64,000 nucleotides of DNA, from NCBI GenBank assembly GCA_040081795.1, contig JBEBFV010000001.1, forward strand, positions 959-64,958, given 5' to 3'. Below are positions 3,666 through 63,049 of the stretch, in pieces (within the stretch, counting starts at the first letter, position 1; each line of letters starts with the position of its first letter). The position numbers and the translations under genes were made by a program. The notes beneath the pieces are model-generated. The model made no database searches, had not been told where the DNA came from, and saw only the letters and a list, made by a program, of their open reading frames with translations. The stretch comes from Limisphaerales bacterium. Its GTDB lineage: Bacteria; Verrucomicrobiota; Verrucomicrobiia; Limisphaerales; SXTU01.

Positions 3666-3684
3666 GATGGGAAGTGCCAGCCCA

Positions 3685-3900: not shown

Positions 3901-3930
3901 GCCGTTCCTGCCCCACCCCCGGAGGCCCGC

Positions 3931-29085: not shown

Positions 29086-29089
29086 AGCC

Positions 29090-29899: not shown

Positions 29900-29921
29900 T
29901 CGTTCACAAGCGAAAACGGGA

Positions 29922-30923: not shown

Positions 30924-30933
30924 TCGCAAATTT

Positions 30934-48154: not shown

Positions 48155-48907
48155 AAGCAAGTCATTCAGCGCGGCCCGCGTGTCCTCGCCGGGCAGCTCT
48201 GGCAACTGGCTCTGGTCATGCGCCGCCTGAAGTTCGCCGCGCAGCCGCTGGTATTCCGACTCGTGGAACGCGATGTCCGCATCCTCCAGCTTCGACTTCT
48301 CCGGCCCAGCCAGCTTGCGCGCCACCAACTCGGCGAGGTAGGGCAGCCGGAACGCCTCGTTCAGCGTGACCAGATTCGCCTCCACCACGCCGGTCCGCAT
48401 CAGGTGAATGCCCGTGAGCAGGACGCGATACACGTAGAGCAGCGGCTTCACCCTGCGCGGCGATTCCTTGAGGAACAGTTTCCACTGCGTCTCCGCGAAG
48501 CCGAAGTAGTGATGCGAGTGATGCTCCGTGATGCAGCCAGGCGCGATGGCCTTCAACTCCGCGTGCTCCGGCGTCGTGTGGACGATGAGGGGCGAGAACA
48601 ACTGCTCCAGGACGTAGCCGTTCTTCTTGAGCAGCAGGCCAAAGAACTTCCGCACGTCATGGCTCACAATGTCCATCTCCAGCCCTTCAATGACGCGGGC
48701 CTCCTGCACCGTCTCGTCGCGCACGTCCAAGCCGATGATCTTGTCGAGCGGCAGCACATGCGCGCCGCGCAGGTCAAAGTCCGAGTCCGGCGACGGAAAC
48801 CCGTAGAGGTGCGCGCCGCTGATGGTAGCGAACAGCAGCGGATACGGCTGGTCCGCTACGATGCGGTGCAGGCGCGGGTCAATGGTCATGGGCATCACGG
48901 TGCTCAC
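48128..48907 (-). CDS. RlaP-like nucleotidyltransferase (RNA-repair-associated pol-beta superfamily)
   Basis: PYPLLFATISGAHLYGFPSPDSDFDLRGAHV.. is an NTase G-[SG]..D.D pattern. 259 aa. The start overlaps the pnkp stop. Confidence 0.65.
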   Translation of the reverse strand: MSTVMPMTIDPRLHRIVADQPYPLLFATISGAHLYGFPSPDSDFDLRGAHVLPLDKIIGLDVRDETVQEARVIEGLEMDIVSHDVRKFFGLLLKKNGYVLEQLFSPLIVHTTPEHAELKAIAPGCITEHHSHHYFGFAETQWKLFLKESPRRVKPLLYVYRVLLTGIHLMRTGVVEANLVTLNEAFRLPYLAELVARKLAGPEKSKLEDADIAFHESEYQRLRGELQAAHDQSQLPELPGEDTRAALNDLLLRVRLKVR

Positions 48908-51456
48908 AGTCGCGGGTCCACCGGCTCACTCTCCATGGCCAGCACGCCGAAGACGCACTCGTGGACACGCCGCAGCGGCTCGCCACGCGTGAACCGCTCC
49001 AACGCCTCGACCCCCAGCGCGAACTCCCGCAGGGCGAGCGAGCGCTTCGCGTTCAGTCCGCGTGAGCGCAGCCGCTCCAGGTTTTCGGGGGCGGTGTATT
49101 CCGGGCCGTAGATGATGCGCAGGTATTCCCGACCCCGGCATTTGACCGCCGGTTGGATCAGCCCCCGCTTGCCGCGCACCACAAAGTCAAGCGGCTTCAC
49201 CACCATGCCTTCACCACCGAGCGCCGTGAGTTCCTCCCACCAACGGACGGCGGCGGCCTCGCTGTCGGGGTTGGTCACCTCGACGACTTGAAAGGGCGTG
49301 GCGATGAGGATGCCACCGGCCAGCCGCGCCAGAGTCTGCATGTGCCAGTCGTTGGGTTTGTCCACGTGGACCTTGCCCTCCGTTGCCAGCAGGTGGAAGG
49401 GAGCGAGCTTGAGGTCGTCCACCGAGTTCACCGGCCAGCAGTAGCGACGGTAGGAGGCGACATAGTCGGCAGCCATTTCACGCCGGGCACCGGTGCGGAG
49501 AAGCAGGTCGCCCACGTCCAGGCCACGGCCATCGGCTTGCTTCAGCAGCCCGACTGCGTCGCCTAGCATCGCCCCGGCGGATGCGCCCACCGGGGCGTAT
49601 TGCTCTTTCAGCAACCCCTGAGCCTTCGCCGACCACGGCATCAGCTCGCAGTCGAGGCAGGCCCAGTCGGTTTGGAACTCGTCCCAGAACCCGGCCCGCG
49701 TCACCGCGTCGCGCACATGTTCGAGGAAGCCGGTTTCCATGACCGTGTCGTCAAAGAACCGCCGACCCGTGCGCGTGTAGCAGACGCCGAAGCCCTCACC
49801 CGTAACGCCGAAGCGTTTTCTCGCCACATCCTCATCACGGCAGACAATCACGACGGCGCGTGAACCCATGTGCTTCTCCTCGCAGACCACGCGGGGCACG
49901 CCTTCATGGCGGTAGTAGGCGAACGCCTCCGCAGGATGCTCCAGCAAACCGGGCTGCTGGCTCGTGCCACTGGGCGACATCGTGGGCGGCAGGTAAATCA
50001 GCCACTTCGGATTTGTGGCGAAGCGGCTCATCACCTCCAGCGCGGCGGTGGCGTTCTCCTCCCGGATGGTCACGTTCCCGTGCAGGCGCGTGCTGACGAT
50101 GCGCTTGCCCATCACGTCGGCGAGGTCGAGCAAGTCGTCGTGCTGCTGCTGCGCGGACAAGGTCGGTGCCTGAGCTTCTGGCAGGAGAAACGGTTTGCGC
50201 GGCTCGGCGTAAGTCTGTTTGGCGGCAACCGAGACCAGTTCCCGCTCCGGATACCGCAGCGCCGTGAGCTTCCCGCCGAAGACGCAGCCGGTGTCGATGT
50301 TGAGGGTGCGGTTCAGCCACTCCGGCTCTGGCACCGGCGTGTGCCCATAGACTACCGCCGCCGAGCCGCGATACTCGGCGGCCCAGTTGTAGCGCACCGG
50401 CAGACCAAACTCGTCCGTCTCGCCCGTGGTCTCGCCGAACAGGGCGAACTCTCGCACCGCCCCGGAGCCGCGCCCCTGCATGGATTCCTTCATGCCCGCG
50501 TGGGCGACCACCAGCTTGCCGTCGTCGAGCACGTAATGGCTCACGAGCGAGTCAATGAACTCCGCCGCGACGCGACTGAACCCCCGGTAGTGCTGCTCGT
50601 AGGCTTCAAACTGGGCCAGCGTCTCCGCCAGCCCGTGCGTGATTTGCACGTCCTTGCCCCAGACCTTGCGCATGAACTTCATGTCGTGGTTGCCCGGCAC
50701 GCACAGCGCGCTGCCGAACTTCACGCTGTCCATCACGAGCCGCACGACTTCGGGCACCTTCGGTCCGCGGTCCACCAGGTCGCCCACGAAGACGAGCTTG
50801 CGGCCTGCCGGGTGATGCCACGCGCCCGCGCTCTGCCCCGTTTCATAGCCCAGCTTCGCCAGCAGCTCGACCAGCTCATCGAGGCACCCATGCACATCGC
50901 CGATGAGGTCAAACGGGCCGTGCTCGTGCTTCAGGTTGTTCCAAAGCGGCTCACGCACGATCTCGACCGTCTCGATTTCCTCCAGCGACTTGAGCACATG
51001 CACATGGCGAAAACCTTCGCGCTCCAGCCCGCGCAGCGACTGGTGCAGTTGCGTGGCCTGCTGCCGAATGACGTGCGGCCCGAAGTTGCGGTCGGGCCGG
51101 GTCTGGTTGCGCTCGTGCGCGACGCGCTCCGGCACGTCGAGCACGATGGCCACGGGCAGGCAGTGGAACTCCCGTGCGAGCTGCACCAGCGGCTTGCGCG
51201 CCTCCGGCTGGACGTTGGTGGCGTCCACCACCGTGAGCTTGCCCGCTGCGAGCCGCTTGCGTGCAATGAAGTGGAGCACGTCAAACGCGTCCTTCGTCGC
51301 CGCCTGGCTGTTCTCTTCATCGGACACCAGCCCGCGACAGTAGTCCGAGGAAAGCACCTCCGTCGGCTTGAAGTGCCGCCGCGCAAACGTGCTCTTGCCA
51401 GAGCCGGACACGCCGACCAGCACGACGAGGGAGAGTTCGGGGACGGTGAGTTTCAT
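48904..51456 (-). CDS. pnkp: Polynucleotide kinase-phosphatase-ligase (bacterial Pnkp)
   Basis: Kinase P-loop LVGVSGSGKSTF. Metallophosphoesterase motifs GDVHGC, GDLVDRG and GNHD. A C-terminal adenylyltransferase-like region has CEEKHMGSRAV. 850 aa. Confidence 0.9.
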   Translation of the reverse strand: MKLTVPELSLVVLVGVSGSGKSTFARRHFKPTEVLSSDYCRGLVSDEENSQAATKDAFDVLHFIARKRLAAGKLTVVDATNVQPEARKPLVQLAREFHCLPVAIVLDVPERVAHERNQTRPDRNFGPHVIRQQATQLHQSLRGLEREGFRHVHVLKSLEEIETVEIVREPLWNNLKHEHGPFDLIGDVHGCLDELVELLAKLGYETGQSAGAWHHPAGRKLVFVGDLVDRGPKVPEVVRLVMDSVKFGSALCVPGNHDMKFMRKVWGKDVQITHGLAETLAQFEAYEQHYRGFSRVAAEFIDSLVSHYVLDDGKLVVAHAGMKESMQGRGSGAVREFALFGETTGETDEFGLPVRYNWAAEYRGSAAVVYGHTPVPEPEWLNRTLNIDTGCVFGGKLTALRYPERELVSVAAKQTYAEPRKPFLLPEAQAPTLSAQQQHDDLLDLADVMGKRIVSTRLHGNVTIREENATAALEVMSRFATNPKWLIYLPPTMSPSGTSQQPGLLEHPAEAFAYYRHEGVPRVVCEEKHMGSRAVVIVCRDEDVARKRFGVTGEGFGVCYTRTGRRFFDDTVMETGFLEHVRDAVTRAGFWDEFQTDWACLDCELMPWSAKAQGLLKEQYAPVGASAGAMLGDAVGLLKQADGRGLDVGDLLLRTGARREMAADYVASYRRYCWPVNSVDDLKLAPFHLLATEGKVHVDKPNDWHMQTLARLAGGILIATPFQVVEVTNPDSEAAAVRWWEELTALGGEGMVVKPLDFVVRGKRGLIQPAVKCRGREYLRIIYGPEYTAPENLERLRSRGLNAKRSLALREFALGVEALERFTRGEPLRRVHECVFGVLAMESEPVDPRL

Positions 51457-51621
51457 TGTCGGCTGCCGCCGTGCGCTACAGGTCTTGCACCTGCCCGACC
51501 CCCATCATCCTGCCTTTGGCCCGTTCGGGCGGGGGGGCATGCTGCTTTTGCGTCAGGCTCGCTTACATCAAGCGCACGGCTAGCTTGAGACTACGGGTTT
51601 AGAGCCTTCGTGTGCAATCCA

Positions 51622-53922
51622 CTACGGCTGGGGCTTCAGAAGTTTCTCCGCACTGGCAGTCATTTCAACAGCGTGCTGTCTGCGATTCTCCATGGCCTCA
51701 TTGCTCTGCGGCACTGGCAACTGTTGCAGGCCTGCCAGCCACTCTTTGATGAACCGAATGAACACCTCGGTGTGCGTGCAAGCTTGTTTGATGAAGTGCT
51801 CCCAGTTCTTCAAAACGCGTGCGCTCACCGCGTTGTGAATCGCTTCAAGCGAGTTGTGAACACCACTTTGAAGGTGCCCGCGCATCCGTGCTGCGCATCC
51901 AGTGCCCCCCTCGCCTCCGATAAGACTGAACGCTGGCGATAGAATTTCCCGAATCTCAGGCGTAAGCCTCGCACGTAAAGATTCGTAGTCGTCCGTGCTC
52001 TTGCGAAAATCCTCTCGTAAGGCCTTTAGTTGAAGCGTCGCTTTCGTTCCGAAGTCTGCCATGCGCTCGTCCACGAACCGCACGGTGGCCGGGTCTTGGG
52101 CCAAAGCGAAGCCCCTCGCCTCCTGGATAATCTTCTCAATGGAGTGTATCAACTCGTCCAGTTTAGTGCCGCAGATGATTTCGATAAGCCGGTCACGGTC
52201 TTGCACCCAAGTCGCTCTGAGCTGCTCGCAATAAATTTCAGCCAAGTCCCCTTGAATGTGATACTCACGTCCATCATACGTCGTGTGCCATCCGCGCTTT
52301 GAGCCAAGCGCCCTCATCGTCCTCCAGTGCAATCCGGTCCACACTTCCATCCTCCATCGCAGCGGATTCTGGAATCCGCGTTGCGCGTGCATCAGGATTT
52401 CCGCTGCCTTCTGGTGAAAGCTTGACTCGATTTGTCCGAGTAACCGCTCACTGTCGTCGGTTTCAACGAGGAACTGCGTGACACCGGCCTCAACGTGTTT
52501 TGCAATTTCACGGTAAGCTTCGGCTTGGCCGGCCAAGCCGAGTTCAGCTCCCATCCTCTGGCGGCGAAAAAAGTCGATGACCGAACCCACCTCGCTTTCC
52601 AGGTGGCTTTGCATTCGCCTGAGAAAATGAGTGCTCAAATACTGCTCCGTGGATTCTTGAAGCACACGTCGCATCTTCGGGATGCCAGTCTTCTCCGTGT
52701 CCTCGTCGAAGCGAAGGAAACGAGACATCATTTCCAGATTTGCAGGTTTGTAGGGATTATCCCGCACCCTAGTTCGCAGCCCTCGGTCGCTGAGTTGCCG
52801 AAAAGTTTTGGCAGATACAAAATGCACCGGCATCGAGTTCACGAACTCATCGAGGCGAGCGACGAGTTTGGCGTCAGCGAACTTGTCGCGCACTAACTGA
52901 CGTAACTGTCGTCGAAAATGGGCTTCCTGCTCTCGACAGTGGGCCTCAAGAAACGGCCATGTTGATGGTGCGTCTTCCGGGACGTTTTCTAAAGGCTGCT
53001 CGTCAATGACCGTGCGAACCACCATCACTCGCTGCTGGTTTCGCTCGGTGCTCTCAGCGATTTCCGACAGGATGGAAGTCTGCTTGAACCACTCCATGAC
53101 ATCGCTGCCCAACTGAGTGCCTTTCGTAATCAGCATCAATCCAGCAACTTTACTTTGGGCCTGCTCGGTGACTTCCGTCCTAAACGGGTCGATGTCGTTG
53201 GTTCCGGGCATGTCGATGAGTTCCATCTGTGGTGCCCACTCAGGAAACCGCCCTTCCAGAACGCACTCCTCGACAACGAATGCCTTCTTGCCCTGCGCTG
53301 CCAGGTGCTCTGCAACCGCCGCGTCGTCCTCGACAGCGATTTCACGGCTCGCTCCAAATTCGTCAAAAGTGATGCCTTCGGGACGAACGAGGCATTGCTT
53401 GCAGAACTCCACTATCTGAGCTGGGGAGCGGTCACGGATTCCAAAGAAGCCGATAAATCTACCGAGCGCCTTTCGGATTTCCTCGCCCGCAGTCGCGGCA
53501 GACTCCTCGCCAGAGAGCGCCGTTTCAGCATCCTTGAGTCCGTCTTTGAGCTTCGACAGGAAATCCTCTTGAGAAACGTAGCGCACCGTCATCCTGTAAC
53601 CGTCAATTTCCAGGTAGCGACACCGCACCACGGCGGCGGAACACGCTCCAACATGGCCTTCCGTGAGAATCTTCCGACCCAAGAGCACGTTGACGAGAGT
53701 GCTCTTGCCATTCTGCGAGCTACCCAGCAGGTGAATCGCAAAGCGAGGCTCGTCTTTGAGTTCTGCCCGGAGAGCGTTCAACCGCTCGACTCGCTCTTTG
53801 AAGAATTTCGTCGTCTCTGGCGATGCGAAGTAGGCTTCCGCCTTCGGTCGAAGTTCAGCCGAGATGGCGTGAATTGCGTTCTCGGCTATTGCCAGCAACT
53901 CGATGGTTGAAGTTTTCGGCAT
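51622..53922 (-). CDS. Dynamin-family large GTPase-like protein
   Basis: G1 is LLGSSQNGKSTLVNVLLG and G3 is LIDMPGTND. A long helical C-terminal region follows. 766 aa. Confidence 0.65.
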   Translation of the reverse strand: MPKTSTIELLAIAENAIHAISAELRPKAEAYFASPETTKFFKERVERLNALRAELKDEPRFAIHLLGSSQNGKSTLVNVLLGRKILTEGHVGACSAAVVRCRYLEIDGYRMTVRYVSQEDFLSKLKDGLKDAETALSGEESAATAGEEIRKALGRFIGFFGIRDRSPAQIVEFCKQCLVRPEGITFDEFGASREIAVEDDAAVAEHLAAQGKKAFVVEECVLEGRFPEWAPQMELIDMPGTNDIDPFRTEVTEQAQSKVAGLMLITKGTQLGSDVMEWFKQTSILSEIAESTERNQQRVMVVRTVIDEQPLENVPEDAPSTWPFLEAHCREQEAHFRRQLRQLVRDKFADAKLVARLDEFVNSMPVHFVSAKTFRQLSDRGLRTRVRDNPYKPANLEMMSRFLRFDEDTEKTGIPKMRRVLQESTEQYLSTHFLRRMQSHLESEVGSVIDFFRRQRMGAELGLAGQAEAYREIAKHVEAGVTQFLVETDDSERLLGQIESSFHQKAAEILMHAQRGFQNPLRWRMEVWTGLHWRTMRALGSKRGWHTTYDGREYHIQGDLAEIYCEQLRATWVQDRDRLIEIICGTKLDELIHSIEKIIQEARGFALAQDPATVRFVDERMADFGTKATLQLKALREDFRKSTDDYESLRARLTPEIREILSPAFSLIGGEGGTGCAARMRGHLQSGVHNSLEAIHNAVSARVLKNWEHFIKQACTHTEVFIRFIKEWLAGLQQLPVPQSNEAMENRRQHAVEMTASAEKLLKPQP

Positions 53923-53961
53923 GGTTGAAACCCTATTTTACTTCTCGATTCGCGTCGAGAA

Positions 53962-55380
53962 TTACGAACCCCCACGCGTCCGCTCGAACACCCCCATCTG
54001 CGTCGGTGAGCCGACGGTCGCATCCTCCGGCCCGACTGGCAGAAACCGCACCGCGTAGCCGAAGCGGGCGGCGATGCCGTTGGCCCACCCCTGAAACTCC
54101 GCACGCGTCCACTCGAAGCGGTGGTCGCGGTGGCGGAACTTGCCCGCCGGAAGGGTCTCCCATTTCACGTTGTATTCGCGGTTGGGCGTGGTGAGCACCA
54201 CGGTGCCGGGCCGGGCGAACTCGAAGAGCACGCGCTCGAACGCCGCCAGGCGCGGCGGGTCGAGGTGTTCAACGACCTCGACGACAGCAGCGGCATCGAA
54301 GCCGGCCAGCCGCTCGTCCCGATACATGAGCGAGCCGTGCAGGAGCTTGAGTCGCTCCTTTTGCAGCGCGGGCAGGCGGTCGTAGTGCAGGTTCTCCACC
54401 GCCATCTCCAGCACGCGATGCGACACGTCCAGCCCGACGATGCGCGTGAACTGGCGTTCCTTGAGCAGCATGCGCAGCAGCTTTCCTTCGCCGCAGCCGA
54501 GGTCGAGCACGGAGGTTGCGCCAGCGGCCTTGAGCACGGCGAGCACGGTCCCGAGGCGCTGCTCGTTCAGACTCAGGGCACGCTCGACGGTCGCCTCCTC
54601 CTGAGCTTGGGCCTCCGCAGTGTCGTCGGGATGCGGGTCGCTCTCGTCCACGAGCTGGGCGAGCGCGTCCGTGACGAGGCTGCGCTGGTGCTTCAGGTAG
54701 CGGCGCGTGATGGCGTCACGTTCGGGATGCGCGGCGAGCCAGCCTTCGCCGTGGCGCAGGAGCTTGCTCACTTCGTCGTCGCCGACCCAATAGTGCTTGT
54801 CGTTGTCGAGCACCGGCACGAGCACGTAGAGGTGGCTGAGGAACTGGTGCAGCGGGAGCGTGGCCTCCAGCTCGACGCGGTGATAAGCGCTCTCGCCCCA
54901 GGCCGGGAAGGTTTCGTCGAGTGGCAGTCGCGTGGCACTGACACGATAGCCGAGCGGCTCAAAGAGCTTGCGCAGGAATTCCTCGCCCCCTCGACAGGGC
55001 AACGCGGGAAGTTGGACGCGCAGTGGCAGCGGCGTCTGGGACAGTCCCGGATGGTCTTTGCACTCCGTGCCCGACAGCGCGCTGCCGAAGACCTCCGCGA
55101 TGGCCACGCTGAGGAACGACGAGGCGGCGTAGGGCCGGTCGTTGACGTATTGCTCCAGCAAGCCGCCCTCACCGGACGGGCCGCGCCGCTTGCGCACGAG
55201 TCCCACCGGGTCCACCTCCACGAGCAGCGCCACCGAGCAGCGTTCCTCGCCCGCTTCGGGATAGAAGACATGGGCGTTGCCGAACGTGAGTTCAAACGAC
55301 TGCGAGCGCGCCGGGTTCTTGCGGAGCAAGTAGCCCAAGTCCGTCGCGGGACGGTGCGTGGTCGTCAAGGTGAGTAGCAT
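53962..55380 (-). CDS. hen1: Bacterial Hen1 RNA 3'-terminal 2'-O-methyltransferase
   Basis: The N-terminus MLLTLTTTHRPATDLGYLLRKNP is typical of bacterial Hen1. The C-terminal SAM motif is VLDLGCGEGKLL. 472 aa. Confidence 0.88.
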   Translation of the reverse strand: MLLTLTTTHRPATDLGYLLRKNPARSQSFELTFGNAHVFYPEAGEERCSVALLVEVDPVGLVRKRRGPSGEGGLLEQYVNDRPYAASSFLSVAIAEVFGSALSGTECKDHPGLSQTPLPLRVQLPALPCRGGEEFLRKLFEPLGYRVSATRLPLDETFPAWGESAYHRVELEATLPLHQFLSHLYVLVPVLDNDKHYWVGDDEVSKLLRHGEGWLAAHPERDAITRRYLKHQRSLVTDALAQLVDESDPHPDDTAEAQAQEEATVERALSLNEQRLGTVLAVLKAAGATSVLDLGCGEGKLLRMLLKERQFTRIVGLDVSHRVLEMAVENLHYDRLPALQKERLKLLHGSLMYRDERLAGFDAAAVVEVVEHLDPPRLAAFERVLFEFARPGTVVLTTPNREYNVKWETLPAGKFRHRDHRFEWTRAEFQGWANGIAARFGYAVRFLPVGPEDATVGSPTQMGVFERTRGGS

Positions 55381-55407
55381 GGGAGGAAGCTATTGAGTTC
55401 CTGGTGC

Positions 55408-56337
55408 CTAGCCAGCCATCTCACGCCGAGCCTTGAGGAGGAAAAGGTTAGCCGACTCGTAGTCGGGGCGTTCGGGCAGTTTGGTCTCCGCTAGGGCGCG
55501 CTCAAAGTCCCGGTGGAGTTCCTGTCGCCATGCGTCCACGTCGGCCCAAGGCATCTCGCCGCGCTTGACCACAAGCAGTCGGTCGCGGTGGGCCTCGACG
55601 CGCACAGGGACGCGGGCCTCACGCAACGTGGCCGCGCCGGTGAGCAGCAGGCGCAGCAGGTGCATGGCGTGCTTCCATCGCACCGCGCCCTGGTTGCGGA
55701 TGTCCTGCTCGATCTTCTTGAACTGCGACATGGCGTAGCCGTTGAAGGTCTGGAAAATCATCTGGCTGAGGAAGCCTTGGCGCAGGGCCACCAGCTCCGC
55801 GCCCAACGGCGTGGCCTTTTCGACCAGCGGCGAATAGAGGCACTCCAGGATGTTGGGGTTGGCCTTGAGCGCCATGGTCAGGAACTTCTGCAATTCCCAG
55901 TAGCAGCTCTGCGAGGCGTTGTCCTCGAACTGCTCCGGCGCACCGAACAGCGACCATTGCAGGTCGGCGGGCGCAAGGTAGATGCCGCGCTGGTCGGTGT
56001 CGGAGTCGTCCTGGTCCAGCCCGTAGGCACGCGACCCGACGACGCAGCGGTAGATGATGAACTGTTCGAGGTCGAAGTCCGCCGTCGCCCCGCCGTCACC
56101 GAGGCGATCCTTGAAGTGCTTCAGGACTTCGAGCTGCGAGCGCTCCAGTGATTTCTCGAAGCCGTCGGGGAAGCGGACAAGGAACTGCACCTGATCGCCC
56201 GTAGGTGTGCGGGTGACGACCCCGACCGCGCCACGCGGATGGACAAGCGAGTTGTTCGTCCCCCGCACTTCCACCAGCGACACGACCTGCGTGCCCGCGA
56301 AGATGTTGTTGGGTTGATGTGACACAAGGCACCTCAT
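55408..56337 (-). CDS. RlaP-like nucleotidyltransferase, first gene of the RNA-repair operon
   Basis: VVGSRAYGLDQDDSDTDQRGIYLAP..YWELQKFLTMALKANPNILECLYSP matches the RNA-repair-pathway pol-beta family pattern. 309 aa. Confidence 0.7.
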   Translation of the reverse strand: MRCLVSHQPNNIFAGTQVVSLVEVRGTNNSLVHPRGAVGVVTRTPTGDQVQFLVRFPDGFEKSLERSQLEVLKHFKDRLGDGGATADFDLEQFIIYRCVVGSRAYGLDQDDSDTDQRGIYLAPADLQWSLFGAPEQFEDNASQSCYWELQKFLTMALKANPNILECLYSPLVEKATPLGAELVALRQGFLSQMIFQTFNGYAMSQFKKIEQDIRNQGAVRWKHAMHLLRLLLTGAATLREARVPVRVEAHRDRLLVVKRGEMPWADVDAWRQELHRDFERALAETKLPERPDYESANLFLLKARREMAG

Positions 56338-56376
56338 CTCAGAAGGGCTTGGGCTTTCTCTCCGATTCCAACCCGC

Positions 56377-56392
56377 CTGTCAAACTTGACAG
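56377..56392. promoter_or_regulatory. Candidate SOS box CTGTCAAACTTGACAG (CTGT-N8-ACAG, perfect palindrome)
   Basis: Located in the 88-bp divergent region between the RNA-repair operon (start 56337) and lexA (start 56426). Confidence 0.5.
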
Positions 56393-56406
56393 CCGCATCC
56401 TCTGGC

Positions 56407-56424
56407 ACTACTCAAGCGAGTAGT
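56407..56424. promoter_or_regulatory. Second palindrome ACTACTC-AAGC-GAGTAGT abutting the lexA start
   Basis: Perfect 7-4-7 inverted repeat ending 2 nt before ATG 56426. Confidence 0.35.
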
Positions 56425-56425
56425 A

Positions 56426-57046
56426 ATGGCCAAACTCACCAAACGACAGCAGCAGGTCCTCAGCTTCATCCAGTCGGCGCAGCAGCGCGGCCACGCCGTG
56501 CCCACCCTGCGGGAGATTGCCGCCCACTTCGGCTTCGCCAGCACGCGGGCCGCCGCCGACCACCTGGCCGCACTCAAACGCAAGAGCATGCTCGCCTCCA
56601 CTCCCGGCCAGGCGCGCTCGCTGCGCGTCATCACGCCCCTGCAAGCCCTGCGCAGGCTGGTGGTGGACATCCCGGTCTATGGCTCAATCCCCGCCGGGTT
56701 CGCCGACGACCGCAAGCAGGAGGCCAAGGGCTGCGTCTCCATTGACATCGAGACGCTGGGCATCAAGCCAACACCGCGCACCTTCGCGCTCGAAGTCCGG
56801 GGTGAGTCCATGGTCGGCAAACACATCATGGACGGCGACCTTGTGGTGCTGGAACACGGCATGACCCCGCGCCACGGCGACGTGGTGGCCGCGCTCATCG
56901 ACAACGAGAGCACGCTCAAGACGTTTCAGTTGAACCGGGGCAAGCCCTTCCTCCACGCCGAGAACCCCAAGTTCCCCGACCTCATCCCGGCGCAGGAGCT
57001 GGTCATTCAGGGGGTGATGGTGGCGCTCATCCGAAAGCGGAAATGA
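56426..57046 (+). CDS. lexA: LexA repressor
   Basis: Winged HTH (PTLREIAAHFGFASTRAAADHLAALKRKSML), an Ala-Gly cleavage site (SIPAGF), Ser (GESMVG) and Lys (LIRKRK). 206 aa. Confidence 0.9.
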   Translation: MAKLTKRQQQVLSFIQSAQQRGHAVPTLREIAAHFGFASTRAAADHLAALKRKSMLASTPGQARSLRVITPLQALRRLVVDIPVYGSIPAGFADDRKQEAKGCVSIDIETLGIKPTPRTFALEVRGESMVGKHIMDGDLVVLEHGMTPRHGDVVAALIDNESTLKTFQLNRGKPFLHAENPKFPDLIPAQELVIQGVMVALIRKRK

Positions 57047-57052
57047 CTCCCA

Positions 57053-60000
57053 GTGCCCCGCGTCATCGTTCATCTCGATGCCGACGCCTTCTTTGCGTCG
57101 GTGGAACAGGCGTCCGACACGCGCCTGCGTGGCAAGCCGGTCGCCGTCGGTGGTGAGAAGCGCGGCATCATCGCCTCTGCCAGCTATGAGGCCCGCAAGT
57201 TCGGCGTCTTCACGCCCATGCCCACCGTGCGGGCGCGCAAGCTCTGTCCCCAGCTCATCGTCCTGCCCGGCGACTTCGACAAGTATGAGCACTTCTCCCG
57301 GTGGATGTTCAGCTACGCGCAGGACTTCACTCCCGATGTCGAGATTGCGAGCATCGACGAGGGCTACTTCGACCTGAGCGCCGTGCGGAAGCCGCCGCTG
57401 AACGTGGCCGAGACCATCCGCACGGCCATCCGGCAGTCACTCAAGATTTCGGTCAGCGAGGGCATCGCCAGCAACAAGCTCGTCAGTCAGATTGCCTCCA
57501 AGCTGTCCAAGCCTGCCGCGTTCAGGGAGGTGCCCGCCGGGTTGGAAGTCCGCTTCATCCATCCGCTGCCCAACAAGTGGCTGCCCGGTGTCGGCCCCGC
57601 GACCGCGCAGCGGCTCGACGCCGCCGGGTTGGCCTGCATCCGCCACGTCGCGGCCACGCCCACGGACATGCTGCACCTGCTGGTGGGCAACCTGGCCCCG
57701 ACGCTCAAGGCGCACGCGGACGGCATTGACGAGCGCCCGGTGCTGCCGATGAGCGCCCCGGCCAAGTCCTACAGCCAGCAGCAGACCTTCGAGGTGGACC
57801 TCACGGACGAGGAGTTTGCCGAGGCGGTCCTCCGGCGCATGGCTGACGACCTGATGGCCAAGGTGCGGTCGGATGGCAAGAGCATCCGCACCCTCACCGT
57901 CAAGGTGCGCTACAACGACATGGGCGAGGACCAGTGTGGTGAGAGCCTGCTCGAACCGACCGACCTCGAAACGGATGTCTACGGCCGCTTGCACATCCTC
58001 TTCCGGCAGGCGTGGAAGCGGCGCGTCAGCCTGCGCCTCGTCTCCCTGAAGCTGTCGAATGTGTATGACGGCCTCTTCCGCGCTGAACTCGCCCTCGAAC
58101 GGTCAGCGGAGCAGCACGAGGCCCGGCGACGCTTGGCTGGCATCGTGGATGAGCTGCGCCGCGCACGCGGTCGTGACGTGGTGCTGCGCGGCCATGACTT
58201 CCGGTTGCGTGAGGCTCCGATGGACACGGCGAAGTTTCTGGAGCAGCAGAGCGCGCCGCGTGTGGTCGTGCGCGTGCCGGTGCGCCGAGTCACGCCGACC
58301 AGCTACGTGCCGCTGTCTGTTCACAGCGCCTACTCGTTCCTGAACTCGACGCTCAAGGTGGACGCCCTCGTGGCGCTGGCGAAGCGGCGCGGCCTCTCCG
58401 CCATCGCCCTCACGGACACCGGCAACCTGCACGGCGCGGTGGAGTTCACGCAGGCGGCCAAGCAGGCGGGCATCAAACCCATCCTCGGTGCGACGGTAAT
58501 GGTGGAGGGCCAGCTCGCCCGGCTCTACGTCCAGACTGCGACCGGCTACCAGAACCTCTGCCGCCTGCTCACGACGACCACGCCGCACGCGGAGTCCGAG
58601 GACGACCCCACCGAGCCGCGCCACGTTCACCTGCGTCTGTCACAGCTTGATGGCCTGAACGCCGGACTGCTCGCCGTCGGCGCGGACACGCGGCTGTCCT
58701 CCGTGTTCGATGACCGCTTCTGCCGGGCCGTCTCCAGCTTGGACGAGGCGAAGGCGGCCAGCAGTGCGCGGTGCGTGGCCGTGATGCCGGTTCACTACGC
58801 CGAGCGTGACGACCGTTGGCAGTGGAACATCGTGCAGAGCATCCGCACGCGCACGCTGCTGCGGCAGACGCATCCGGGGAAGCTACTCGATGGTGACTTC
58901 CACCTGCGGACCCCTGCGGAGATGACGGCCCTGTTCCGTGACTTCCCCGATGTCGTCGCCAACACGCTGGAGCTGGCCGAGCGTTGCCCGTTCGAGTTGC
59001 CGCTCGGTGCGCCGCAGTTCCCGGCATTCAAGCCGGAGGATGGCTCCACGCCCCGCGCTTACCTGCGGAAACTCGTGCTGGAAGGACTGCGCCGCCGTTA
59101 CCGTGACCGGGCGGATGCCATGCACGCGCAGGTGGACGAGGAGCTGGGCATCATCGCGGAGGTCGGCTACGAGGCCTACTTCCTCGTCGTCTGGGACATC
59201 CTGCAAGCGTGTCGGCAGCACGGCATCGAGTGGATTACCCGTGGCAGCGCGGCGGACTCGCTCGTGTGCTACTGCCTGGGCATCTCGGACGTGTGCCCCA
59301 TCCGGTTCGATCTCTACTTCAAGAGGTTCCTGAACAAGGAGCGCATGGCCATGAACAAGCTCCCGGACATCGACATTGATTTCGCGCACGACCGGAAGGA
59401 CGACGTGGTGGACCTCATCTTCGCCAAGTATGGCGCGGCGCACGCGGCGGTCGTGGGCGGCTTCTCGACTTTTCAGGCCCGCAGTGCCTTTGCCGAAATC
59501 GCCAAGGTGCTCGGTGTCGGGGAACGGGAGGTGCGCAAGTTCACCGACCACTTCCCCTGGAGCTTCGGCGGCGGCTGGGTGCCCAATGAGCCGACGCCCA
59601 GTGGCGGCACGGGCCTGATTGAGATGCTCAAGGCCAGCCCGGAGAACCGTGACCTACCCTTCGAGGAGGAGCCTTACCGGACGGCGCTGCTCATGGCCGA
59701 GTTCCTCGACGGGATGCCGCGCTACCCGAAGATGCACCCGTGCGGCGTGGTGCTCTCGTGCCAGCCGATGACGGAGCTGACGCCCACGTTCACCTCGAAC
59801 AAGGGACGCCCCACGACGCACTTCGACATGGACGCGGTCGAGGCCATCGGGCTGGTGAAGATTGACGTGCTGGCCCAGGGCGGGCTGGCCGCGATGCGGG
59901 ACGCCAGAGAGTCGTTGGCCCGGCGTGGCATCGAGGTTGACCTCGCCGGACTGGAGCCGTGGCAGGACAAGAACGTCTGGGAGATGCTGGCCAGCGGTGG

Positions 60001-61372
60001 AGGCCGGGCGGTGCATCACATCGAGTCACCGGCGATGATTGGCCTGAGCCGCCAGTGCAACGTGCGCGACATCGACGGTCTCGTAGCCATCGTCAGCGTC
60101 ATCCGGCCCGGCGCGGCCAACGAGGGCAAGAAGCAGTCGTTTGCCCGGCGGTATCAGGGCCTGGAGCCGGTCGTGTATCCGCACCCGTCACTGGAGGCGT
60201 GCCTCAAGAGCACGTTCGGGCTGGTCGTGTATGAGGAGCACATCCTGCAACTGTGCGAGGCCTTCGCCGGGCTGCCACCGGGCCGCGCCGACGTGTTGCG
60301 CCGGGCGCTGTCCAAATACAAGGCACCGCTCATAGAGACCATCCGCCAGGAGTTCTTCGCCTGCGCCAAGGCACGCGGCCACGAAGACGAGAAGATGGTT
60401 GAGGTCTGGCGGCTAGTGACCGGCTTCAGCGGCTACGCGTTCTGCAAGGCGCACAGCACGGCCTACGGGGTCGAGGCGTATCAGAGCGCGTGGCTGAAGC
60501 GCTACCACCCGGTTGAGTTCATGGCGGGCGTGCTGACCAACGGGAAGGGGTTCTATCACCCGCTGGTCTATGTCCTAGAGTGTCACCGGCTCGGCATCAC
60601 GTTGCTGCCACCGTGCGTGACCAGTCCCGGCCCGCAGTTCTCCGTCGAGGGCCAGTCCATCCGCGTGCCGCTGACCCGCGTGAAGGGACTTACCGGGCGC
60701 ACGACCGAACGCATCCTCGATGAGCATGGCCGGAGCGTGTTCACGTCCATGTCCGACTTCTACCGGCGCGTGCTGCCCACGCCCGACGAGCTGGAGGCGA
60801 TGATTCGGGTGGGTGCGTTCGACATCTTCGGCAAGACGCGCACGGCGCAGTTCTGGGAGTCCCGTCATCTTCACCACGCCTTCGGGGACAGCGGCACGAG
60901 CGCGCCGGGCCAGGGCTGGCTCCTGCCCCCACCCGCGACCGACCGGCTGCCTGCGGTGCCGTTGCAGGAGCCGACACGTCGCCAGCGGCTTGAGTGGGAG
61001 GCAGAGCTGCTCGACTTCACGGCCAGCGGCCATCCCCTCGAACTCCACGACCACATCGCGTGGGGCACCTACTGCCCGGTGAACCGGCTCGGCGAGCACA
61101 TCGGCCAGCAGGTCGTCGTGTGCGGCCTCATCATCGAGCAGCGCGTCCACCACCAAGTCACCGGCGAGCCGATGAAGTTCCTGACGCTCGCCGACTGGAC
61201 GGGCATGGTGGAGACGGAACTCTTCGCGCCAACGTATCGGAGCTATGGGCTGGCGACCGTGCGCTACCCCGTGCTCGCAATCACCGCGACCGTGGAGCCG
61301 TTCGAGAATGGCCGAGGCTTCTCCCTGCGCGTGCTGCACGCGGGCAAGCCTCGTCAGGGACACCAGCACTGA
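57053..61372 (+). CDS. dnaE2: Fusion protein: DinB-type Y-family polymerase (N-terminus) + DnaE2 error-prone Pol III alpha (C-terminus)
   Basis: One uninterrupted 1439-aa ORF. The first ~390 aa carry the Pol IV motifs LDADAFFASVEQ and SIDEGYFDLS. From ~aa 410 comes a PHP domain (LSVHSAYSFLNST..LTDTGNLHGAVEF), then GYEAYFLVVWDI, LPDIDIDFAH and the rest of a DnaE-type alpha subunit. Confidence 0.85.
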   Translation: MPRVIVHLDADAFFASVEQASDTRLRGKPVAVGGEKRGIIASASYEARKFGVFTPMPTVRARKLCPQLIVLPGDFDKYEHFSRWMFSYAQDFTPDVEIASIDEGYFDLSAVRKPPLNVAETIRTAIRQSLKISVSEGIASNKLVSQIASKLSKPAAFREVPAGLEVRFIHPLPNKWLPGVGPATAQRLDAAGLACIRHVAATPTDMLHLLVGNLAPTLKAHADGIDERPVLPMSAPAKSYSQQQTFEVDLTDEEFAEAVLRRMADDLMAKVRSDGKSIRTLTVKVRYNDMGEDQCGESLLEPTDLETDVYGRLHILFRQAWKRRVSLRLVSLKLSNVYDGLFRAELALERSAEQHEARRRLAGIVDELRRARGRDVVLRGHDFRLREAPMDTAKFLEQQSAPRVVVRVPVRRVTPTSYVPLSVHSAYSFLNSTLKVDALVALAKRRGLSAIALTDTGNLHGAVEFTQAAKQAGIKPILGATVMVEGQLARLYVQTATGYQNLCRLLTTTTPHAESEDDPTEPRHVHLRLSQLDGLNAGLLAVGADTRLSSVFDDRFCRAVSSLDEAKAASSARCVAVMPVHYAERDDRWQWNIVQSIRTRTLLRQTHPGKLLDGDFHLRTPAEMTALFRDFPDVVANTLELAERCPFELPLGAPQFPAFKPEDGSTPRAYLRKLVLEGLRRRYRDRADAMHAQVDEELGIIAEVGYEAYFLVVWDILQACRQHGIEWITRGSAADSLVCYCLGISDVCPIRFDLYFKRFLNKERMAMNKLPDIDIDFAHDRKDDVVDLIFAKYGAAHAAVVGGFSTFQARSAFAEIAKVLGVGEREVRKFTDHFPWSFGGGWVPNEPTPSGGTGLIEMLKASPENRDLPFEEEPYRTALLMAEFLDGMPRYPKMHPCGVVLSCQPMTELTPTFTSNKGRPTTHFDMDAVEAIGLVKIDVLAQGGLAAMRDARESLARRGIEVDLAGLEPWQDKNVWEMLASGGGRAVHHIESPAMIGLSRQCNVRDIDGLVAIVSVIRPGAANEGKKQSFARRYQGLEPVVYPHPSLEACLKSTFGLVVYEEHILQLCEAFAGLPPGRADVLRRALSKYKAPLIETIRQEFFACAKARGHEDEKMVEVWRLVTGFSGYAFCKAHSTAYGVEAYQSAWLKRYHPVEFMAGVLTNGKGFYHPLVYVLECHRLGITLLPPCVTSPGPQFSVEGQSIRVPLTRVKGLTGRTTERILDEHGRSVFTSMSDFYRRVLPTPDELEAMIRVGAFDIFGKTRTAQFWESRHLHHAFGDSGTSAPGQGWLLPPPATDRLPAVPLQEPTRRQRLEWEAELLDFTASGHPLELHDHIAWGTYCPVNRLGEHIGQQVVVCGLIIEQRVHHQVTGEPMKFLTLADWTGMVETELFAPTYRSYGLATVRYPVLAITATVEPFENGRGFSLRVLHAGKPRQGHQH

Positions 61373-61419: not shown

Positions 61420-61914
61420 CTAATTTGAAACTGCCCCGAATCCGAAGCCCTGTTTTCTCAGCATTTCAAACAGCTTCACACATGGAACGCCAAAGTGGTT
61501 GCACACCGATGGAATTTTTACACGATGCTTTGAGTTCTCGTGTTTCTCAAAAGTCACAACCGCGTGACGGTGGGCATGGGCGTGAGCAATCAGCCAGTAA
61601 TCCGCATCATTTAGGAACTCTGCCTTCGCCGCAGAACTGTAGGTGTTGTGACTGTCCAGCCAAACGGCAATTGCTTTGAGCGATTCGGCGGTTTTCTCGT
61701 CTGGTGGCAAAAAGAAGCCCAAACCGAGACTTTTCGACCAAACAGAAAGTTGGTCGGCGTGGCCTTGCAATTCCTCCATCACTTTTTCAACGCTATAGAC
61801 GTGCCCATCTTGGTTGGCCTTAATGAGCCAATCCCAATATGGCTTTGCCATGTCAAACGGGTAAAAGTCGTTCTTCGCCTGAATCAAAGTATTGCTGTCT
61901 AGCAGGTAAGCCAT
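61420..61914 (-). CDS. DUF4411-family (PIN-like) protein
   Basis: MAYLLDSNTLIQAKNDFYPFD..YWDWL.. is typical of DUF4411. The start is at an internal Met of ORF 61420..62010, 1 nt after the upstream stop. Confidence 0.7.
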   Translation of the reverse strand: MAYLLDSNTLIQAKNDFYPFDMAKPYWDWLIKANQDGHVYSVEKVMEELQGHADQLSVWSKSLGLGFFLPPDEKTAESLKAIAVWLDSHNTYSSAAKAEFLNDADYWLIAHAHAHRHAVVTFEKHENSKHRVKIPSVCNHFGVPCVKLFEMLRKQGFGFGAVSN

Positions 61915-61915
61915 G

Positions 61916-63049
61916 TCAGCACCCCAATCTCTTTGCCAACTCGTGGAACGTGTTGATGCTGCTAACCCCGACGAGTTGCATCGCCTCACGGTAGCTCGTT
62001 CCGCCTTCAAGGGCGCTTACAACCAAACTTCTCGTAAGGCGTCTGCCTGCGCGAATCGGAGCGCTCCTGTAGAAACTTCCTCCCGCCCCCTTTCGGTGGT
62101 ATCTGCGCACCTCGTTCGCGTAGATTTCTTTGAAACGCGGTTGGTCAATGAATCCAGCATCAAGCGCACGCCTAGCAGTAACCAATGTGCTGACCTTGAA
62201 CTGCCTGCCAAGCCGGACAACTTCGGAATAACTGTCTGCTTGAGTGCGCCAATGCACTCTAAACATTGCCATTGGTATCAGCAGTTCAGCTCCAACGGAA
62301 TTGCAATAGCGTTCAACGCTTTGATCGGGGGGCAGGCTGTCATCAAGATTGAAAACCACAGACTCTCCAATCCAAAGGTGAACAAGCTCGTGGGCCAATG
62401 TGAACAGTTGCGCTGCCTTGGAGTCGGCGGTGTTAATAAACAGAACCGGCGCATACTTGTCGCAAAGCGCGAATCCCCGAAAATCGCTCACAGAAATAGC
62501 CCTGCGCGTTGCGTTTCCAACGATGCTGCTTCGCATCACGACAATTCCAGCGTCCTCTGCCTCTTCGACATGGAGTTCAAGGCTTTCCTCCCAACTGCTC
62601 GCCCTGAATGAAATTTCTGGCCCAATGCTCAAGGTGGAGCGGATTACTTCTGCCGCCGTTTCAACCCGCGTATCTGGCCTCAAAGAGCCGATAAACGGCA
62701 GAGGTTCGTTGCCAGCCTTTTTCAGATGATCGCGATACCATTCCTGCCTGCGTTGGGCGTGGTAAATGACATCGAGCAGGTTGGGGCTTACTGTGGCTAC
62801 GCCGGAAACGGTTCTAAAATCCTTCACCGGCAGCTTCTCTACAGGCGGCTTTGGTAGGAAAAGATAACCAACCGGCGTGTGCGTCTTTTCGGCCAACGCC
62901 TCCACTTGCTTTAGGGAAAGGATGCCATCCATCTCCCACTCCACAACACGGGACACTTTCTTCCCCAACCTTTTTGCGAGTTCTTCGGGGCTTAACCCGG
63001 CCCTGATTCTCGCCCAGCGCAACACATTTGGCTCCAGGTTCGTATTCAT
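61916..63049 (-). CDS. XRE-HTH / ImmA-IrrE family zinc metallopeptidase
   Basis: N-terminal HTH (LRWARIRAGLSPEELAKRLGKKVSRVVEWE) and the HExxH motif TLAHELVHLWIGE. 377 aa. Confidence 0.85.
   Translation of the reverse strand: MNTNLEPNVLRWARIRAGLSPEELAKRLGKKVSRVVEWEMDGILSLKQVEALAEKTHTPVGYLFLPKPPVEKLPVKDFRTVSGVATVSPNLLDVIYHAQRRQEWYRDHLKKAGNEPLPFIGSLRPDTRVETAAEVIRSTLSIGPEISFRASSWEESLELHVEEAEDAGIVVMRSSIVGNATRRAISVSDFRGFALCDKYAPVLFINTADSKAAQLFTLAHELVHLWIGESVVFNLDDSLPPDQSVERYCNSVGAELLIPMAMFRVHWRTQADSYSEVVRLGRQFKVSTLVTARRALDAGFIDQPRFKEIYANEVRRYHRKGAGGSFYRSAPIRAGRRLTRSLVVSALEGGTSYREAMQLVGVSSINTFHELAKRLGC

Follow-up and report, generated by a model that had tools for sequence, protein, structure and literature searches.

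Which polymerases does the long open reading frame (ORF) directly downstream of lexA in a Limisphaerales bacterium encode, and from what kind of operon did it arise? The stretch of DNA analyzed, referred to here as the window, comprises 64,000 nucleotides (nt) of contig JBEBFV010000001.1 (positions 959 to 64,958, forward strand) in GenBank assembly GCA_040081795.1. Coordinates are those of the window unless a related locus is named. The ORF encodes one protein of 1439 amino acids (aa) in which a DinB-like Y-family polymerase (PolY) is followed by a DnaE-type C-family polymerase. We conclude with high confidence that lexA and this single fused polymerase gene form a two-gene operon and that one chain bears two polymerases. 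The fusion is a real, conserved feature of one order of the Verrucomicrobiota and not an artifact. It is a covalent form of the module known as DnaE2B-PolY. The explanation as a whole, which combines this identity, an origin from a polY-dnaE operon, and an inferred two-polymerase mechanism, is one that we consider probable.

A single gene downstream of lexA encodes two polymerases

56426-57046, plus strand: lexA, 206 aa, winged-helix and S24 autopeptidase domains (Pfam PF01726, 2.6e-18; PF00717, 1.7e-21)
57053-61372, plus strand: fused polymerase gene, GTG start, 1439 aa plus stop, single ORF

The initial annotation had described one 1439-aa ORF starting 7 nt after lexA. This was borne out, with 6 nt separating the lexA TGA (which ends at 57046) from the GTG of the fusion (57053). 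Pfam domains follow one another along the ORF in the order IMS (residues 8-150), IMS_C (238-337), PHP (421-514), DNA_pol3_alpha (670-941), finger (946-1108), and HHH_6 (1181-1265). The full-length product has a predicted mass of ~158 kDa.

The fusion is conserved in one order of Verrucomicrobiota

A search of ~5.8 billion proteins returned 1642 matches at E <= 1e-10. The best 120 of these 1642 were 65-95% identical to the window protein and 1237-1597 aa long, the shortest lacking part of the N-terminus. The IMS_C, PHP, and Pol III architecture was present in all of the best 120, and all six domains were present in 119 of them. Wherever sources were named among the best 120, they were Verrucomicrobiota, Limisphaerales, or Pedosphaera. 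The proteins had been deposited as "DNA polymerase III subunit alpha," "DNA polymerase IV," or "polymerase." The initial annotation had asked whether the fusion was already widespread and annotated. It is the norm in Limisphaerales/Pedosphaera-type genomes, but it has been deposited under these generic names only.

The search of related genomes that the initial annotation had suggested also recovered the fusion. A scan of one genome per GTDB species gave 77 loci among the matches listed, at 56-95% identity. Verrucomicrobiota subdivision 3 (Limisphaerales/Pedosphaera) accounted for almost all of them. Two cultured strains, Limisphaera sp. VF-2 and 4302-co, were represented, as was one complete chromosome of a metagenome-assembled genome (MAG). 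When ORFs were re-derived, the frame was uninterrupted over query residues 1-1434 in 65 of the 77 loci. A contig end cuts seven others, as well as L058, which a script had flagged as unfused but which starts at a contig edge. Three loci (L041, L074, and L075) have interrupted frames, and one (L064) is genuinely unfused. Even in P0125, which at ~51-55% identity diverges most among the fused representatives, lexA lies upstream.

Mean identity was 78% for the PolY palm/fingers and 78% for the DnaE polymerase core. This equal conservation of the two catalytic cores argues that both are used, and the sequence comparison suggests that purifying selection most likely maintains both halves.

Several individual loci deserve comment. 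In L064, dnaE (3225-6818) follows a B12-binding radical-SAM gene, with no PolY gene or lexA nearby. The unfused DnaE proteins of L064 and P0121 are 56-65% identical to the DnaE part of the window protein and apparently reflect secondary loss of the PolY half. Loci L003 and L044, which come from the same MAG, were considered as paralogous operons. This was rejected because their flanks are syntenic at 88-90%, and they are probably co-binned strain variants. The records for L001, L002, L007, L026, L050, L053, and L073 are titled Klebsiella pneumoniae, Bifidobacteriaceae, Enterobacteriaceae, or Chitinophaga pinensis. On contigs of 63-68% GC these taxonomic labels are almost certainly wrong.

The Y-family part has the catalytic residues of Pol IV

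57053-58072, plus strand: Y-family polymerase, residues 1-340 (palm/fingers/thumb 1-235, little finger 236-340)

Pfam recognized IMS (PF00817, 6e-45) and IMS_C (PF11799, 5e-18) in this part of the protein. The best matches in the Protein Data Bank (PDB) were to Pol IV (7yll, 6.6e-55; E. coli Pol IV, 4e-43, 151 bits). Residues D9, D102, and E103 align to D8, D103, and E104 of E. coli Pol IV, and F14 aligns to the steric gate F13. The motifs quoted in the initial annotation were located at residues 9-18 (DADAFFASVE) and 100-108 (SIDEGYFDL). In an alignment of 67 family sequences, which includes two wrongly picked ORFs (L013 and L063), residues D9, D11, D102, E103, Y45, R48, K150, and K153 are kept in 64-65 sequences. 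For the catalytic carboxylates and the steric-gate F14, the range is 61-65 of the 67. NCBIfam Pol IV models gave 250-260 bits, below the equivalog cutoffs of both NF002677 (E. coli type, 253.7 versus 256, a near miss) and NF002882 (259.8 versus 389).

ImuB, the Y-family member of the imuA-imuB-dnaE2 cassette, is distinguished by the loss of its catalytic carboxylates, which are present in the window protein. The ImuB proteins of Agrobacterium and Rhodanobacter had no tblastn match in the window, and the ImuB-C domain is thus unmatched by sequence. Among 78 related loci, the lone ImuB match was weak and fell in the PolY part of L019. Because Pol IV residues are aligned and kept and ImuB finds no match, the Y-family part is DinB-like rather than ImuB-like, as the initial annotation had held. 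It has a complete active site and is predicted to be active.

The C-family part is a short DnaE with a degenerate PHP domain

58304-59122, plus strand: PHP domain, residues 418-690 (Pfam PHP, 5.7e-22), with degenerate metal ligands
59123-60592, plus strand: C-family polymerase core (palm, thumb, fingers), residues 691-1180 (Pfam DNA_pol3_alpha, 8.4e-68; finger, 1.9e-30)
59363-59383, plus strand: PDIDID with catalytic D772 and D774, aligned to Thermus aquaticus (Taq) Pol III alpha
59858-59872, plus strand: KIDVL with catalytic D938, aligned to Taq Pol III alpha
60593-60862, plus strand: tandem helix-hairpin-helix domain, (HhH)2, also named beta-binding, residues 1181-1270 (Pfam HHH_6, 2.2e-17)
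60911-60925, plus strand: QGWLL, candidate internal beta-clamp motif, residues 1287-1291, at the position of QADMF (residue 920) in E. coli DnaE
61013-61369, plus strand: OB-fold C-terminal region, residues 1321-1439, mean identity 78%

The start of the PHP domain at residue 418 (nt 58304) lies within the interval of nt 58,250-58,330 noted in the initial annotation. The polymerase active site is well conserved, with D772, D774, D776, and D938 kept in 65-66 of the 67 family sequences. The PHP metal ligands have diverged from those of Taq Pol III alpha (LHQH to LSVH, LLDG to FLNS, and TDHG to TDTG), and these positions vary within the family (S422 is R in 40, N in 7, H in 5, and S in 4; T456 is T in 27, I in 11, and V in 5). 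The PHP domain is therefore predicted to lack proofreading activity. The alignment to Taq Pol III alpha stops at Taq residue 1109 of 1220, leaving ~20 query residues. The tau-binding C-terminal domain (CTD) is absent, because the protein ends ~20 residues past the OB region. QGWL[LF] is conserved in most fusions, and motifs of the xxLF type stand at the same site throughout the short-DnaE group. QGWLL is thus a putative clamp-binding site.

The best structure matches for residues 418-1439 were the DnaE1 proteins of Taq, Mycobacterium tuberculosis, and E. coli. At E < 1e-30 the PDB search matched DnaE1 structures only, and no solved DnaE2 structure was among them. Bit scores against the two NCBIfam models were as follows.

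Window DnaE part: DnaE1 model (NF004226) 661 (cutoff 1002); DnaE2 model (NF004225) 537 (cutoff 939)
Agrobacterium imuAB-linked DnaE2: DnaE1 611; DnaE2 1372 (passes)
P0211, DnaE1-like: DnaE1 1387 (passes); DnaE2 697
Emticicia, dinB-linked: DnaE1 565; DnaE2 505
Desulfosarcina, polY-linked: DnaE1 632; DnaE2 585
P0131, polY-linked: DnaE1 726; DnaE2 605
P0140, polY-linked: DnaE1 832; DnaE2 661

The window DnaE thus scores like the DnaEs that adjoin separate polY genes, which fall below both cutoffs. With no tau-binding CTD and a nonconserved PHP site, it is DnaE2-like in the broad sense of Timinskas (2014 and 2026). The initial label of DnaE2 therefore stands insofar as it denotes a CTD-less DnaE with a dead PHP domain. 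It does not stand in the narrower sense, because the protein fails the NCBIfam DnaE2 model and lies outside the imuAB-linked clade.

The segment between the two polymerases

58082-58096, plus strand: AELAL, degenerate remnant of the PolY beta-clamp motif, residues 344-348
58118-58210, plus strand: conserved linker motif EARRRLAGIVDELRRARGRDVVLRGHDFRLR, candidate RecA N-terminal (RecA-NT)-like, RecA-binding motif, residues 356-386
58211-58303, plus strand: Pro/Arg/Ala-rich variable spacer, flexible tether, residues 387-417

The linker had initially been estimated at ~25 aa, but the inter-domain segment measures ~80 aa and consists of conserved residues 341-386 followed by a variable spacer (~31 aa in the window). 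AELAL aligns with QLDLF, QISLF, and QAQLF of unfused PolY partners and with QINLF of Emticicia DinB. The family form at this site is xELxL, in which E345, L346, and L348 are invariant or nearly so. The canonical clamp motif QL[SD]LF after the little finger is not present in the window or in the fused family. The alignment points to decay of the PolY clamp motif after the two genes were joined.

The pattern of the linker motif in the family alignment is LAxx[VI]D[ED]LRxxxGxx[VI]xLRGHD. Timinskas and Venclovas equated a C-terminal motif of PolYs with RecA's N-terminal oligomerization motif, and the alignment suggests that linker block 356-386 descends from that PolY motif. In hhalign comparisons the block fell on RecA residues 6-29 in a constant register, with a probability of 80% for the C-termini of unfused PolYs and 71% for the pooled sequences. 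RecA binding through the linker motif is plausible but unproven.

Mean identity of the spacer is 21%, versus 52-78% in the folded domains. Its length across the family ranges from ~25 to 150 aa and changes in multiples of three nt, with the frame kept. An AlphaFold2 (AF2) model of residues 1-1200, built from a 37-sequence alignment, was of low confidence overall (mean predicted local distance difference test score [pLDDT] of 62, predicted template modeling score of 0.51). In this model pLDDT was below 50 at residues 377-411, and residues 352-372 formed a helix followed by a short strand. The spacer is predicted to be disordered.

The operon has a predicted LexA operator

56386-56391, plus strand: -35-like TTGACA of the lexA operon promoter, read from the sequence, with promoter function putative
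56407-56424, plus strand: predicted LexA operator, perfect palindrome ACTACTC-AAGC-GAGTAGT, overlapping the -10 region and ending 1 nt before the lexA ATG

The predicted LexA target sequence in the window is ACTACTCAAGCGAGTAGT. The arrangement is widely shared. Of 60 loci with enough flanking sequence, 52 carry lexA directly upstream in the same orientation (median gap, 37 nt), and 7 more have it 0.3-0.9 kb upstream. A TTGAC -35 box stands at the equivalent site in 57 of these 60. A perfect 7-N(4-6)-7 palindrome ending 0-3 nt from the lexA ATG was found in 41 of the 60 loci, versus 0.4% of shuffles and 2 of 60 control windows further upstream. Twelve more loci have a 6/7 match, and palindromes matching at 6/7 or better thus occur in 53 of 60 loci versus ~12% of shuffles. 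Another candidate box, TGTCA-N4-TGACA at 56379-56392, was rejected, since it does no more than enclose the -35 TTGACA and lacks conservation.

The operator half-site differs between species and co-varies with the recognition helix of LexA, in at least five classes (half-site, then recognition-helix region).

ACTACTC: S[ST]RAAADHLxALKRK
ACTATCC: SHRAAA[CD]HL
ACTGTAT: SLN[AS]VTxHxRLLRQK
ACTGTTC: SMNAAAxHVRALRRK
ACCGTAx: SLTTV[AT]DHLRLIRQK

The ACTGTAT-N4-ATACAGT class resembles the E. coli box (CTGT-N8-ACAG), and within ACTGTTC-N4-GAACAGT lies TGTTC-N4-GAACA, the LexA motif already published for Verrucomicrobia. The helix of Pedosphaera parvula LexA was noted to be divergent, and no canonical site was found for it (Erill et al. 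2016; PMC4951493). Co-variation of helix and operator may explain the missing canonical site at P. parvula lexA. Taken together, SOS control of the lexA-fusion operon is well supported computationally.

The closest relative of the window is L001, whose fusion protein is 95% identical (90% at the nucleotide level; window 56434-61334 versus L001 5382-10282). The two have only the lexA-fusion operon in common, with both flanks unrelated. The S24 domain of L001 LexA is nearly identical to that of the window, whereas the DNA-binding domain has strongly diverged, and the L001 operator (TACCGTC-N6-TACGGTA) belongs to another class. This comparison suggests that the LexA DNA-binding domain and its operator were swapped together and that the operon moved or its surroundings were rearranged. 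Two Limisphaera isolates (L040 and L072) have two tandem operator copies upstream of lexA, for example ACTGTTCGTTTGAACAGTTGTGCATATGAACAGC. A similar tandem of LexA sites has been reported in Opitutus terrae (PMC4951493).

The fusion probably arose from a polY-dnaE operon

The initial annotation viewed the gene as an altered imuA-imuB-dnaE2 cassette without imuA. The absence of imuA holds for the window and 78 related loci, which define the scope of this statement. Pfam and NCBIfam scans of the window ORFs (64 kb) found no imuA, imuB, or recA. In tblastn searches of the window and the 78 loci with ImuA and ImuB of Agrobacterium and Rhodanobacter and with E. coli RecA, nothing was found except the weak L019 match. 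The view of the gene as a modified cassette was not supported. The DnaE part lies outside the imuAB-linked clade and scores below the DnaE2 cutoff, and the nearest unfused relatives are polY-dnaE operons of a type without imuA or imuB.

These relatives emerged from an exhaustive search of 1.84 billion cluster representatives. The fusion family makes up a few clusters at 50% identity, and the next most similar proteins are unfused, ~1000-1070 aa long, and 41-55% identical. Directly upstream of P0131 (44% identical to the DnaE part), in the same orientation, stands a polY of 402 aa, and before this polY comes an ORF of 128 aa whose S24 C-terminus is LexA-like. In P0140 (36%) polY overlaps dnaE by 20 nt, in P0127 (45%) polY lies two genes upstream, and P0123 (55%) and P0129 (41%) stand alone. 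L081 and L083 are two-gene polY-dnaE operons with an active-looking PolY, and together with the dinB-dnaE pair of Emticicia they count among the nearest unfused relatives. Along its whole length, the PolY of the P0131 locus (L081) matches the PolY part of the window protein at 47% identity, and thus both halves of the fusion have the same nearest unfused relatives.

A neighbor-joining tree, and hence a distance-based one (929 columns, 55 taxa, 100 bootstraps), was built with references labeled by length, context, and NCBIfam score, a set that excludes the DnaE2B reference sequences of the published surveys. Short DnaEs split from a long, DnaE1-size group that includes E. coli DnaE (bootstrap 98). 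With L064 among its members, the fusion family forms a single clade (98) and joins the unfused P0123 and P0124 (100) and then P0127, P0129, P0131, and P0138 (100). The window DnaE is consistently nearer to those of Emticicia, Desulfosarcina, and P0140 than to the imuAB-linked DnaE2 references. Because its nearest unfused counterparts are found in (lexA-like)-polY-dnaE operons, the fusion probably arose there and not from imuA-imuB-dnaE2. The origin most likely was a single joining of adjacent polY and dnaE in a (lexA-)polY-dnaE operon in an ancestor of the Limisphaerales/Pedosphaera lineage.

A possible mechanism and its alternatives

In undamaged cells LexA would sit on the palindrome overlapping its own promoter and repress both genes. 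DNA damage would lead to RecA-stimulated self-cleavage of LexA and expression of the fusion. The sliding clamp would bring the enzyme to a stalled primer end, mainly via QGWLL of the DnaE part, and the linker motif might also recruit the fusion through RecA. The Y-family module would then insert nucleotides opposite the lesion, after which the tethered, nonproofreading DnaE module would take over the distorted primer end and extend it. The tether would replace the noncovalent scaffolding provided elsewhere by ImuB/ImuB-C or a PolY-DnaE2 interface, setting a 1:1 stoichiometry and holding the second polymerase at a high local concentration. The strongest form of this proposal is an obligate translesion machine with two active sites, in which a Y-family inserter hands off intramolecularly to a DnaE extender on one clamp-bound, perhaps RecA-activated, chain. 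We offer this strong form tentatively, as somewhat less likely than not.

Several observations weigh against the proposed reading of the locus. The unfused L064 and P0121 nest inside the fusion clade, a sign that the PolY half is dispensable in some lineages. At L030, lexA is missing from the surrounding 6 kb, the sole such case of the 60 loci. The degenerate clamp motif has neither the Gln nor the terminal Phe, and the PolY part alone may no longer engage the clamp. As for RecA, the hhalign probability for the RecA-NT match was 20% for the fused family alone. When a hidden Markov model of the linker was searched against RecA and ~9,000 decoy ORFs, RecA ranked 77th (E = 31). Pfam DUF4113 had no match in the linker or in the C-termini of unfused PolYs, nor did it match the intended positive control, Emticicia DinB. 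The AF2 model gave a pLDDT below 50 for the PolY core and nothing reliable on inter-domain docking. Activity at both sites and the binding of LexA, clamp, and RecA are all deductions from sequence.

Other explanations of the same gene were considered. The PolY module could be a noncatalytic, ImuB-like hub that recruits DnaE to the clamp or to RecA, with DnaE responsible for all synthesis. The canonical mutasome does use a Y-family member as a scaffold (PMC6511836, PMC12926913), PolYs that have been inactivated make up many of the DnaE2B partners (the scDinB2 and gbDinB2 types of those papers), and the Desulfosarcina partner has GDEAAF where SIDEAY would be expected. However, over a range of 56-95% identity, 64-65 of the 67 family sequences retain the catalytic triad, the steric-gate aromatic, and the residues that bind the triphosphate, and the PolY palm/fingers are conserved as much as the DnaE core. 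The recruiting element, the clamp motif, is what has degenerated, the opposite of the expectation for a pure hub, and ImuB proteins gave no significant match. A catalytically inert hub is thus unlikely. Post-translational cleavage of a polyprotein within the variable spacer, leaving the cell with two separate subunits, would be compatible with a spacer that is long, disordered, and poorly conserved and with unfused two-gene versions that clearly work in relatives. Yet the spacer shows no conserved motif for cleavage, and, lexA aside, the fusion is linked to no protease gene. The single frame in 65 genomes despite many spacer lengths suggests that the covalent link itself is selected, making cleavage a quite unlikely account.

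The fusion might instead be the replicative Pol III alpha of the cell with an added lesion-bypass domain, as its GenBank name "DNA polymerase III subunit alpha" and its higher NCBIfam score for DnaE1 than for DnaE2 (661 versus 537 bits) would have it. This is highly improbable. The DnaE part fails the DnaE1 cutoff of 1002 bits, its PHP domain is degenerate, the tau-binding CTD is missing, and it clusters with short accessory DnaEs apart from the DnaE1-size group. It shares a transcription unit with lexA behind a predicted operator, its PolY part was lost in one lineage (L064), and all surveyed bacteria encode a DnaE1, DnaE3, or PolC replicase (PMC3919608). That a missed stop or frameshift merged polY and dnaE during sequencing or assembly has a probability close to nil. 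Relatives do have unfused polY-dnaE operons with tiny or overlapping junctions, and the three interrupted frames could be read in the same way, but the frame is continuous in 65 independently assembled genomes, including those of the isolates Limisphaera sp. VF-2 and 4302-co. The best 120 of the 1642 protein matches, from several sources, are all fused, and the spacer length shifts by multiples of three with the frame intact. A fused, SOS-controlled pair of polymerases derived from a polY-dnaE operon thus remains our preferred reading.

Genes around the operon

Immediately downstream of the fusion, on the minus strand (61420-63049), is a pair of genes of low GC content, 50-54% versus ~66% elsewhere. 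The pair encodes a DUF4411 protein (61420-62010) and an HTH_3/Peptidase_M78 (ImmA/IrrE-like) protein (61916-63049), and it looks like a horizontally acquired module of the toxin-antitoxin or anti-repressor type. Divergent from lexA, also on the minus strand, is a bacterial RNA-repair cluster (48904-56337).

48904-51456, minus strand: Pnkp
51622-53922, minus strand: dynamin-like GTPase
53962-55380, minus strand: Hen1
55408-56337, minus strand: RlaP

The DNA-damage operon and the RNA-repair operon may share the intergenic region 56338-56425. Further upstream, on the plus strand (24563-40500), a defense-island-like row of genes encodes DUF4007, an unannotated 1150-aa protein, a PAPS-reductase-like protein, GmrSD_N (DUF262), and SIR2_2, along with unannotated proteins of 631 and 512 aa and a 1773-aa FtsK/HerA-like ATPase. 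This row may be a defense system based on DNA modification.

A DUF72 gene lies at 46214-47158, ~10 kb upstream of the lexA-fusion operon. DUF72 genes also occur in or beside unfused operons, in the order lexA-DUF72-polY-dnaE in Desulfosarcina and polY-dnaE-DUF72 in L083 and L084.

L087, 2003-2809: DUF72 gene
L083, 9011-9895: DUF72 gene
L084, 3454-4344: DUF72 gene

This recurrence hints at a link between DUF72 and the polY-dnaE module.

Significance

A covalent PolY-DnaE fusion was undescribed in the literature that could be searched, full-text searches included, a scope outside which most subscription-journal papers fall. The fusion is unmentioned in the paper on the Verrucomicrobia SOS response (PMC4951493), an analysis of Pol III alpha from 2014, one of Y-family polymerases from 2019, and the 2013 paper by Aravind on SOS components. 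A 2026 polymerase survey, which covered complete genomes only, does not mention it either, and its supplements have no fusion and no Pedosphaera or Limisphaera entry (PMC12926913). The sequences themselves were already public under their generic names, and these findings correct a database annotation that files fusions as "DNA polymerase III subunit alpha" or "DNA polymerase IV."

The earlier proposal that PolY and DnaE2 act as partners outside ImuA-ImuB rests on gene neighborhoods and AlphaFold models. A natural fusion throughout an order, with both active sites kept, is independent genetic evidence for joint action at the same site. A single polypeptide is also convenient for biochemistry, given its 1:1 stoichiometry and lack of need for an accessory scaffold, and it allows testing of an inserter-to-extender hand-off between two polymerases in bacterial lesion bypass. 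The lexA operators found here widen the known Verrucomicrobia LexA motif, with clear co-variation of repressor and operator. The fusion is notable to specialists, and any new principle would have to await the biochemistry.

Comparison with known systems

Compared with E. coli Pol IV (DinB), the Y-family part is alike in fold, domain order, and catalytic residues. It differs in its degenerate clamp motif and in continuing into a polymerase of ~1020 aa.

Like ImuA-ImuB-DnaE2 (ImuC), the fusion pairs a partner of the Y-family fold with an accessory C-family polymerase that is linked to LexA, has a dead PHP domain, and lacks a tau-binding domain. Verrucomicrobium spinosum and O. terrae carry the imuA-imuB-dnaE2 cassette under LexA (PMC4951493). 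Unlike that cassette, the fusion has no ImuA or ImuB-C, its Y-family part is catalytically intact, and its DnaE lies outside the imuAB-linked clade.

The nearest counterpart is the DnaE2B-PolY-RecA system. DnaE2B occurs in genomes without imuA or imuB and is paired with active or inactive PolYs bearing a RecA-NT motif, and DnaE2B-PolY complexes have been proposed from AlphaFold models (PMC12926913, PMC6511836). Both systems have no imuA, imuB, or imuB-C nearby, are linked to an SOS-type repressor (often so in the case of DnaE2B), and have a PolY clamp motif followed by a RecA-NT-like motif, a candidate one in the fusion. The window DnaE, like DnaE2B, falls outside the imuAB-linked clade and is coupled to a PolY, here covalently. 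It lies on the same side of the tree as the dinB-dnaE pair of Emticicia, taken as an example of the DnaE2B type from its gene arrangement. Identity of the window protein to that pair is only ~34% for PolY and ~28% for DnaE. The fusion differs from DnaE2B-PolY-RecA in being one polypeptide with a flexible spacer, in its degenerate PolY clamp motif, and in its Verrucomicrobiota lineage. If the proposed hand-off occurs, the fusion would be natural "Rosetta-stone" evidence for a physical PolY-DnaE2B complex in the unfused systems.

Eukaryotic Rev1/Pol zeta couples a Y-family inserter to a nonproofreading extender from a replicative polymerase family in a noncovalent complex. The resemblance to the fusion, which lies in the coupling of inserter and extender, would be one of functional analogy only. 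The extender is of the B family in one and the C family in the other, the association is noncovalent in one and covalent in the other, and no homology is implied. If the proposed mechanism is correct, the fusion would be a bacterial, covalent counterpart of the division of labor between inserter and extender of the Rev1/Pol zeta type.

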